NCBI GenBank assembly: GCA_964517775.1 | Contig: CAZFCP010000008.1 | Location: 23,369 to 87,368, forward strand | DNA from: an uncultured Candidatus Marinamargulisbacteria bacterium | Lineage (GTDB): Bacteria; Margulisbacteria; Marinamargulisbacteria; SXXA01; JAHFDB01 | Direction of reading: 5' to 3' | DNA: 64,000 bases | Part shown: positions 27,175-27,425 of the stretch, piece by piece | Layout of the letters: each line of letters starts with the position of its first letter | How positions within the stretch are numbered: position 1 is the first letter of the stretch | The notes under the pieces: model-generated | What the model was told of the DNA's origin: nothing | Databases searched by the model: none | The model's input: only the letters and a program-made list of their open reading frames with translations | Position numbers and translations under genes: made by a program

Positions 27175-27425
27175 CCAGGGTAAAATTTAACTACCCCGTC
27201 AGGCTCTGCCTGCCACCCCTTCTGGGAAGGGGAATTTAACAGCCGTTTTTGCATTTTTGATGGGATGTCATTTCAGCGGAAGCATGAATCAAGTTCAAAC
27301 ACAAAACAGCCTGGACCTTAGACTCCGCAGGGGTGAAACTATTGAACTGAAAGATGCATAAAAAAATCCCCTTCCCAGAAGGGGTGGCAGGCAGAGCCTG
27401 ACGGGGTAGTTAAATTTTACCCTGG
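27175..27425. mobile_element. Nested palindromic MITE/REPIN-like element, copy 2
   Basis: Perfect 59-nt terminal inverted repeats 27175-27233 and 27367-27425; decayed inner inverted pair 27267-27293 and 27311-27337; inverse homolog of 9553-9786. Confidence 0.88.

Follow-up and report, generated by a model that had tools for sequence, protein, structure and literature searches.

The stretch of DNA analysed here (the window, 64,000 nucleotides) belongs to a draft genome assembly of an uncultured Candidatus Marinamargulisbacteria bacterium (2.15 Mb, 62 contigs, 41% GC, 94% complete); loci elsewhere in the assembly are given as contig and position. Between a nickel/cobalt-transporter-like gene and a gene of 2816 aa, the window carries a repeat element, copy 2 (27175-27425), located 12 nt past a stop codon and 54 nt ahead of the next start codon. 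The ends of this element form an inverted repeat in which 27175-27233 is the reverse complement of 27367-27425 over 59 of 59 nt (CCAGGGTAAAATTTAACTACCCCGTCAGGCTCTGCCTGCCACCCCTTCTGGGAAGGGGA), with a match that breaks off abruptly at both ends, and folding of the single strand is predicted at -93 kcal/mol. A related element, copy 1 (9553-9786), has arms of 48 nt that differ by one loop mismatch (TGG/TGA) and carry on both sides a CTACAG prefix, the hairpin CAGC-TGC-GCTG and CTACAGACTA. The initial annotation had described this hairpin in both arms of copy 1, CAGGC-TCT-GCCTG in both arms of copy 2, and perfect identity over the 59 nt, all of which has been confirmed. However, neither hairpin variant is private to its element, that of copy 1 being also present in a lone arm of the window (41655-41702, minus strand) and that of copy 2 in two further units (C5:58286 and C5:73608). 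The window also contains a small gene of the GIY-YIG type (PF01541), which is a gene-bearing relative of the inner hairpins of these elements. The coordinates are collected in Table 1.

Table 1. Positions in the window of the two elements, their parts and related repeats.
Feature	Position	Strand
15 nt beyond the left arm of copy 2, CCAGGGTAAAATTTA, same on the right side; corresponds to the inner end of a G unit	27175..27189	+
Copy 2 left (B-side) arm, P unit ACTACCCCGTC-(CAGGC TCT GCCTG)-CCACCCC-(TTC TGG GAA)-GGGGA	27190..27233	+
Copy 2 interior, homologous to four other composites (71-75% identity)	27234..27366	.
Two decayed GIY-YIG-type hairpins inside copy 2	27266-27294, 27311-27339	
Copy 2 right (A-side) arm, P unit with the hairpin variant of the left arm	27367..27410	-
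Complete single-half-site G unit abutting the right arm of copy 2 (TAAAAAAGGTACCAGGGTAAAATTTA on the minus strand)	27411..27436	-
Copy 1 A-side arm: CTACAG and P unit, hairpin CAGC TGC GCTG	9553..9600	+
Copy 1 interior; intact GIY-YIG-type hairpins at 9636-9662 and 9679-9708	9601..9738	.
Copy 1 B-side arm: hairpin as on the A side, one loop mismatch	9739..9786	-
Lone arm identical to the exact 48 nt of copy 1; inner flank A-end-like	41655..41702	-
100-aa GIY-YIG gene (41064-41366) between 30-nt inverted hairpin repeats	41034..41411	-

The arms of both copies are members of a dispersed repeat of about 45 nt, the P unit. Its parts are, in order, ACTACCCCGTC, the small hairpin hp1, the block CCACCCC, another hairpin (TTC-TGG-GAA within CCCC...GGGG), GGGGA, and finally a tail rich in T. 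The genome contains 31 P units, about a dozen of them alone. Outside hp1 the units are nearly invariant, the rare changes affecting the loop of the second hairpin, and hp1 itself exists in at least 14 variants in this genome, every one with a paired stem (e.g., CAGC/GCTG, CAGGC/GCCTG, CAC/GTG, and CAGAC/GTCTG). Among the 115 distinct hp1 sequences recovered overall, a perfect stem of at least 3 bp is present in 86% and of at least 4 bp in 64%, versus 23% and 4% of shuffled sequences. A stem kept through changes on both of its sides points to a structured hairpin under pairing constraint. Since hp1 seems to need only to pair, it would be free to drift, and it can be used as a practical lineage marker for tracing the rewriting of arms. 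Anchored fuzzy matching and nhmmer, applied to the whole genome in search of decayed P units, returned one truncated remnant only (C5:33627-33652). In fact, all 31 units are intact although the interiors of the composite elements described below have diverged by 18-29%, which suggests that some process maintains the P units or clears the damaged ones. Hypermutation of the hp1 loop has also been considered, and it is unnecessary given this interior divergence. P units have been found as well in metagenome-assembled genomes (MAGs) labelled Ignavibacteria (81 units, nearly all of them lone), Saccharibacteria (16), Thermodesulfobacteriota (17), and Candidatus Marinamargulisbacteria (14), the last of which shares its order with the genome of the window; in all four MAGs the invariant blocks are those described above, and the hairpins vary but remain paired. 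Among 40 relatives searched, the unit was present in none of the three same-family genomes and in one genome of the same order, and the nearest genomes, which belong to other genera, are without it.

The P unit is associated with a nuclease-like gene. The only PF04480 gene of the genome (C8:4038-4481, 147 aa, DUF559, E = 2e-29) is placed exactly between two P units facing inward, both of which it reads through. A DUF559 gene is present in four of the five unit-bearing genomes (that of the window, G000, together with G042, G043, and G044), always adjoining P units, and among 80 metagenomic homologues (55-73% identical) a unit occurs just upstream of the gene in 57 and just downstream in 55. Among solved structures, the closest is 3HRL, an "endonuclease-like protein" that is uncharacterised, and DUF559 has been placed with Vsr in the PD-(D/E)XK superfamily (PMC3424549). 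A literature search found no paper tying DUF559 to flanking hairpin repeats. The orientation of the units is variable, their heads pointing toward the gene in most cassettes and their tails in this lineage; therefore, P units are modules rather than the fixed ends of a transposon. The metagenomic cassettes are often placed in frame inside restriction-modification genes, for example an hsdR-like gene in L086 (1330-1960), an hsdS-like gene in L041 (1200-1960), and type IIG-like genes in L029 and L030, with L027 as a further cassette of this set; in such cassettes the host reading frame remains open across the P units. In a sister MAG, the DUF559 cassette adjoins hsdS and rhuM. DUF559 proteins have also been reported to be enriched (odds ratio 14) among the predicted targets of programmed inversion (PMC9881135).

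Another dispersed repeat, the G unit (consensus AAAGGTGCCAGGGTTGTAAGGGRAGAAGGTGCCAGGGTAAAATT), has two GGTGCCAGGGT half-sites 25 nt apart and totals 38 half-sites in the genome, often in inverted pairs. The sole Y1 transposase gene of the genome (PF01797, C18:21241-21576; 201 aa) is situated between inverted G units (region C18:21106-21865) and is not flanked by P units; together, the G units and this gene look like a REP/RAYT-like system. Gene-less G pairs exist too, such as C5:51169/51480 and C18:20279/20341, the latter with no spacer. Half-sites of the window are found at 9826-9861 and at the right end of copy 2, and it is unusually common for a G unit to be found within 100 nt of a P unit. 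The extra 15 nt by which the arms of copy 2 exceed the P unit (CCAGGGTAAAATTTA) correspond to the inner end of a G unit. On the A side this G unit is complete (26 nt) and identical at 24 of 26 positions to the G unit at the A arm of C5:58263, whereas on the B side only the inner 15-17 nt of a G unit match. The proposal of the initial annotation that flanking DNA had been captured into the terminal repeat would hold insofar as the matching tract covers 15 nt past the unit, but what it covers is the end of a repeat family and not unique sequence.

Copies 1 and 2 belong to a family of composite elements in which a homologous interior is enclosed by two inward-facing P units. Five such loci exist in the genome (C5:58263, C5:81556, copy 1, copy 2, and C17:7676), and a sixth retains the B end only. 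The interior, or spacer, measures 125-138 nt, has distinct A and B ends, and contains two hairpins like those flanking the GIY-YIG gene; the interiors are mutually 71-82% identical. Apart from the G unit, the sequences flanking the five composites show no relationship to each other, and they contain no direct repeat of the kind expected of a target-site duplication. These diverged interiors and unrelated flanks suggest that the composite was dispersed as a whole, long ago, its P units staying intact. The same dissimilarity of the five flanks rules out that the shared flank came from a segmental duplication, and the asymmetric interior rules out a folding back of the whole element. A second composite type has been observed at C8:569-746 and C15:53733-53855, with a common inner flank (GATCTGAGGCTGTTA). 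The Y-side arm on C15 has the hairpin (GGC-TTT-GCC) of the X-side arm on C8, a sharing that may represent another arm exchange, the C15 copy being cut by the contig end. In addition, two inward-facing P units with unlike hairpins stand 1.7 kb apart at C5:59915-61662.

According to the initial annotation, the arms within each copy match each other and not those of the other copy, and this would be a hint of the replication mechanism. The match is real in copies 1 and 2, which are, however, the only elements where hp1 is the same in both arms, that is, 2/5 composites and 2/7 convergent pairs. Permutation of the hp1 labels gave null means of 0.36 for the composites (P = 0.045) and 0.51 for the convergent pairs (P = 0.086), an excess of matched arms that, judged from the hairpin only, is marginal; the identity of copy 2 across the 15 nt outside the unit is clearly beyond chance. 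The same picture comes from the DUF559 cassettes of metagenomes that have both arms (36 non-redundant), as hp1 is unlike in 33 of them. Their arms are side-specific, hp1 reaching at least 10 nt in 23/36 upstream arms versus 10/36 downstream arms (Fisher P = 0.004), i.e., long upstream and short downstream. Matched arms do occur among the cassettes, three of the 36 being identical in both hairpins versus 0.11 expected by the null. In the cassette of the sister MAG G044, both arms carry private variants in both hairpins. In the matched cassettes the identity ends at the unit ends or a few nt from them, with partial similarity for about 14 nt further in L038.

A nearest-neighbour analysis of the composite arms separates their parts. 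In nine of ten cases, the inner 25 nt have as their nearest neighbour an arm on the same side of a different copy; hp1 is closest to its partner only in copies 1 and 2 (tied with other loci), and the outer 15 nt only in copy 2; the arms of the other three composites have an hp1 identical to that of lone units on other contigs. The clustering of arms from the same locus, which the initial annotation would have taken as support for homogenisation, is accordingly confined to two of the five composites and three of the 36 cassettes. Two patterns had been named there as contrary to its own reading, and both are largely what has been found: inner flanks group left with left and right with right across copies, and the arms belong to a dispersed family with lone copies, although with at least 14 hairpin variants in place of two subfamilies. 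Since most elements have unlike, side-specific arms (three of the five composites, five of the seven convergent pairs, and the 33 cassettes already mentioned), the arms are not remade from each other when the element propagates. Concerted evolution of the arms is not a general property of these elements, and the impression that arms match each other is a sampling effect of looking at two copies.

Copy 2 is the exception. As the initial annotation had noticed, its inner repeats are decayed, and its interior has the largest number of private differences of any copy, 14 at the 81 columns where the other four copies agree (17%). On the other hand, its arms show no differences at 28 positions that are unconstrained in sequence (the 13-nt hairpin plus the 15-nt extension), where about 9.5 would be expected at the rate of the interior, or about 6 over the 18 positions of loop and extension. 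The hairpin of its left arm is also on the wrong side of the family: a 4-bp CAGC/GCTG stem is characteristic of B-side arms (5/6), and the B arm of copy 2 has instead CAGGC-TCT-GCCTG, as does the A arm of C5:58263, in a contrast between B and A stems that comprises 11 arms only (Fisher P = 0.08). The outer junction (GGGTAAAATTTA/ACTACCCC) and the 15-nt extension have no third occurrence in the 94% complete assembly. The identity of the arms against the decayed interior, the A-type hairpin on the B arm, and the complete G unit on the A side only lead us to infer that the B arm, together with the adjoining 15 nt outside it, was rewritten from the A side once the interior had decayed. This reading, to which we lean by a little, applies to copy 2 as a sporadic event, not as the way in which the element is copied; the templating of one arm from the other claimed in the initial annotation would thus survive for copy 2 and fail as a route of replication through an excised hairpin or fold-back.

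The event would have consisted in the overwriting of the B-side arm and 15 nt of its outer flank, the template being the A-side arm located 133 nt away, at a time later than the decay of the interior. The route might have been a short-tract intramolecular gene conversion, possibly begun by a nuclease cut in the unit, or alternatively a template switch of replication across the inverted repeat. In copy 1, the reverse event (from B to A) probably took place. Such copying could be a sporadic side effect of having two long identical sequences, inverted and close together, and copy 2 would then be a datable case of an inverted-repeat arm rewritten from its partner, flank included. A broader proposal, which is doubtful and is put forward tentatively, is that DUF559 cuts at P units and that the cuts are repaired from the nearest, or any, P unit. 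Such repair could keep the 31 units intact while hp1 diversifies, and occasionally copy flanks, giving rise to long palindromes and MITE-like composites. If this were true, the route to miniature inverted-repeat elements would be driven by repair and not by a transposase, and a nuclease triggering that repair would explain both the long-term integrity of the repeat and its assembly into composites.

The main rival to arm copying is insertion into a G/G palindrome, in which the composite, or its two P units, would have come to sit centrally in a pre-existing inverted G pair (the CCAGGGTAAAATTTA/TAAATTTTACCCTGG palindrome), no flank having been copied and the shared hairpin being due to descent or chance. 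G units are indeed frequent as inverted pairs, even spacerless ones such as that of C18:20279/20341, and they are found in the same orientation up to about 70 nt outside all four units with the TCT hairpin. The left outer flank of copy 2, moreover, retains the TG that precedes CCAGGG in the G consensus, together with 5/10 further positions, so that G sequence may have been present in the two flanks already, prior to any conversion. A pre-existing pair, which would account for the mirrored flank, is nevertheless unlikely, because AAAAAAGGT is part of a G unit on the right only, the left side having ATATAAATT, and because it leaves unexplained both the A-type hairpin on the B arm and the identity at the 28 unconstrained positions beside an interior decayed by 17%. 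A search for the orthologous locus in an unconverted state found none in the 40 relatives, and related strains already carry the 59-nt arms.

Alternatively, the arms of copy 2 could be independent draws from the pool of P units, by ectopic conversion or by re-insertion of the same subfamily, with no preference for the partner. The hairpins that the three other composites share with lone units on other contigs, while their interiors are only 71-82% alike, indicate that genome-wide exchange with the pool also occurs and could mimic copying between partners, and the 31 intact units with their single truncated remnant point to ongoing maintenance of the unit. For copy 2, independent draws are improbable in view of the 15-nt outer extension and the junction, which exist nowhere else in the 94% complete assembly. 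It is very unlikely, and already largely refuted by the census, that the element replicates by way of an excised hairpin or a fold-back form on which one arm serves as template for the other, matched arms being the signature of this process. Such a model would agree with the compensatory changes commonly seen on both sides of REPIN hairpins, with the problem, raised for the same elements, of how symmetry is re-established from an asymmetric single-stranded intermediate (Bertels and Rainey, PMC3116915), and with the excess of matched arms over chance in the cassettes. However, most elements have unlike arms specific to each side, P units are not fixed ends (head-in around DUF559 in 57 and 55 of 80 cassettes, tail-in here), the most perfect arms, those of copy 2, go with the most decayed interior, and four sequencing runs yielded no excision or inversion joint with long support. 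Most unlikely of all is that the perfect 59-bp stem is kept by selection for a host function such as a terminator or an RNA-stability element, as its place between a stop and a start codon, the T run after the second hairpin and the strong predicted folding might suggest, since selection for pairing gives complementarity and not an A-type variant on a B arm, the other four composites do with mismatched arms, and in other phyla the T run has not been conserved.

The reading of copy 2 as an arm overwritten from its partner can be placed in time by means of a related strain, present in four to seven public runs and only as short Logan contigs that break at repeats. In the contigs of four runs, the arms and the interior of copy 2 are identical to those of the window; therefore, the copying event would be older than the split of the strains, and the converted state is stable. 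The two strains differ at 27095, 27113, and 27163, and by about 11% past position ~27480. In runs X2-X5, near-identity extends until ~27480 and is followed by this divergence, which falls within the transporter-like gene and affects third codon positions for the most part, so that ~27480 looks like a recombination boundary near copy 2. Among the same short contigs of four runs, no well-supported excision or inversion joint of copy 2 was found. In each of X3, X4, and X5, one contig joins 27246 to 27361 and skips 114 nt, with a shorter side of 29 nt; this joint could belong to another locus with a short-spacer P pair or be a deletion form of copy 2.

Several known systems resemble these composites. 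Like REPINs, they are made of two inverted short repeats and a spacer that fold as one long hairpin, they are non-coding, multi-copy, and without target duplications, and a single-copy gene of nuclease type, bordered by these repeats, is associated with them; in REPINs, compensatory changes affecting both sides of the hairpin have also been reported as common (Bertels and Rainey, 2011, PMC3116915). In the REPIN/RAYT system, however, the gene linked to the arms is a Y1 HUH transposase and not a DUF559 protein of the PD-(D/E)XK type, and here the Y1 transposase is flanked by G units. The composite spacer is also 125-138 nt long with a second repeat family inside. As to the predominance of doublets, the genome has five composites and about a dozen lone units out of 31, and in other genomes P units are mostly lone (nearly all of the 81 in G042). 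Another example is the Ssn (GIY-YIG)/SRM-NTS system (Chenal et al., 2025, PMC11893778), in which a small single-domain nuclease gene is bracketed by a scattered, oriented hairpin repeat across phyla; the inner hairpins of the composite are of this SRM kind. A nuclease gene bracketed by a dispersed repeat was likewise found in G000, G042, G043, and G044 and in the metagenomic homologues, but the outer arms are associated with a nuclease of another superfamily, DUF559 instead of GIY-YIG, and the P unit is built of three invariant blocks with two hairpins in between.

Composites are similar to DDE-derived MITEs in being short, non-coding, and multi-copy with terminal inverted repeats. They differ from MITEs in the lack of target-site duplications, in ends that are independent repeat units, found also alone and in either orientation, and in a gene-bearing relative that encodes a nuclease and not a DDE transposase. 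In quasipalindrome correction by template switching of replication (Ripley's model, with work in E. coli), and in gene conversion between inverted repeats, an imperfect repeat is perfected by copying from arm to arm, and the repeat may become longer when the tract passes its former end. The arms in the classic cases are a few to tens of nt apart, whereas those of copy 2 are separated by 133 nt, a site-specific nuclease may help, and the event is deduced from sequence. The symmetric REPIN hairpin with compensatory changes and quasipalindrome correction are together the closest precedent for copy 2.

Other repeats lie near copy 1. Five tandem copies of CATAGCTA (9516-9555) lead directly into the CTACAG prefix of its left arm, and ahead of the unit at C6:101296 stands a short tandem like CAGCATCAGCTA, which resembles them. 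The window also has, at 11020-11217, a perfect inverted repeat of 26 nt (GGTAGAGACGCATAATTATGCGTCTC), whose arms are each palindromic and stand 146 nt apart across a G/T-rich spacer; it has no relation to the P, G, or SRM families. Finally, a search of Rfam with copy 1 and its surroundings gave no match at the gathering score. The best match below this threshold was WsnRNA46 (Wolbachia sRNA 46; 30 bits versus a gathering score of 65, E = 4e-4, window 9616-9726), which falls on the GIY-YIG-type inner hairpins of copy 1, and this Rfam family may itself have been built on a repeat of the SRM type.
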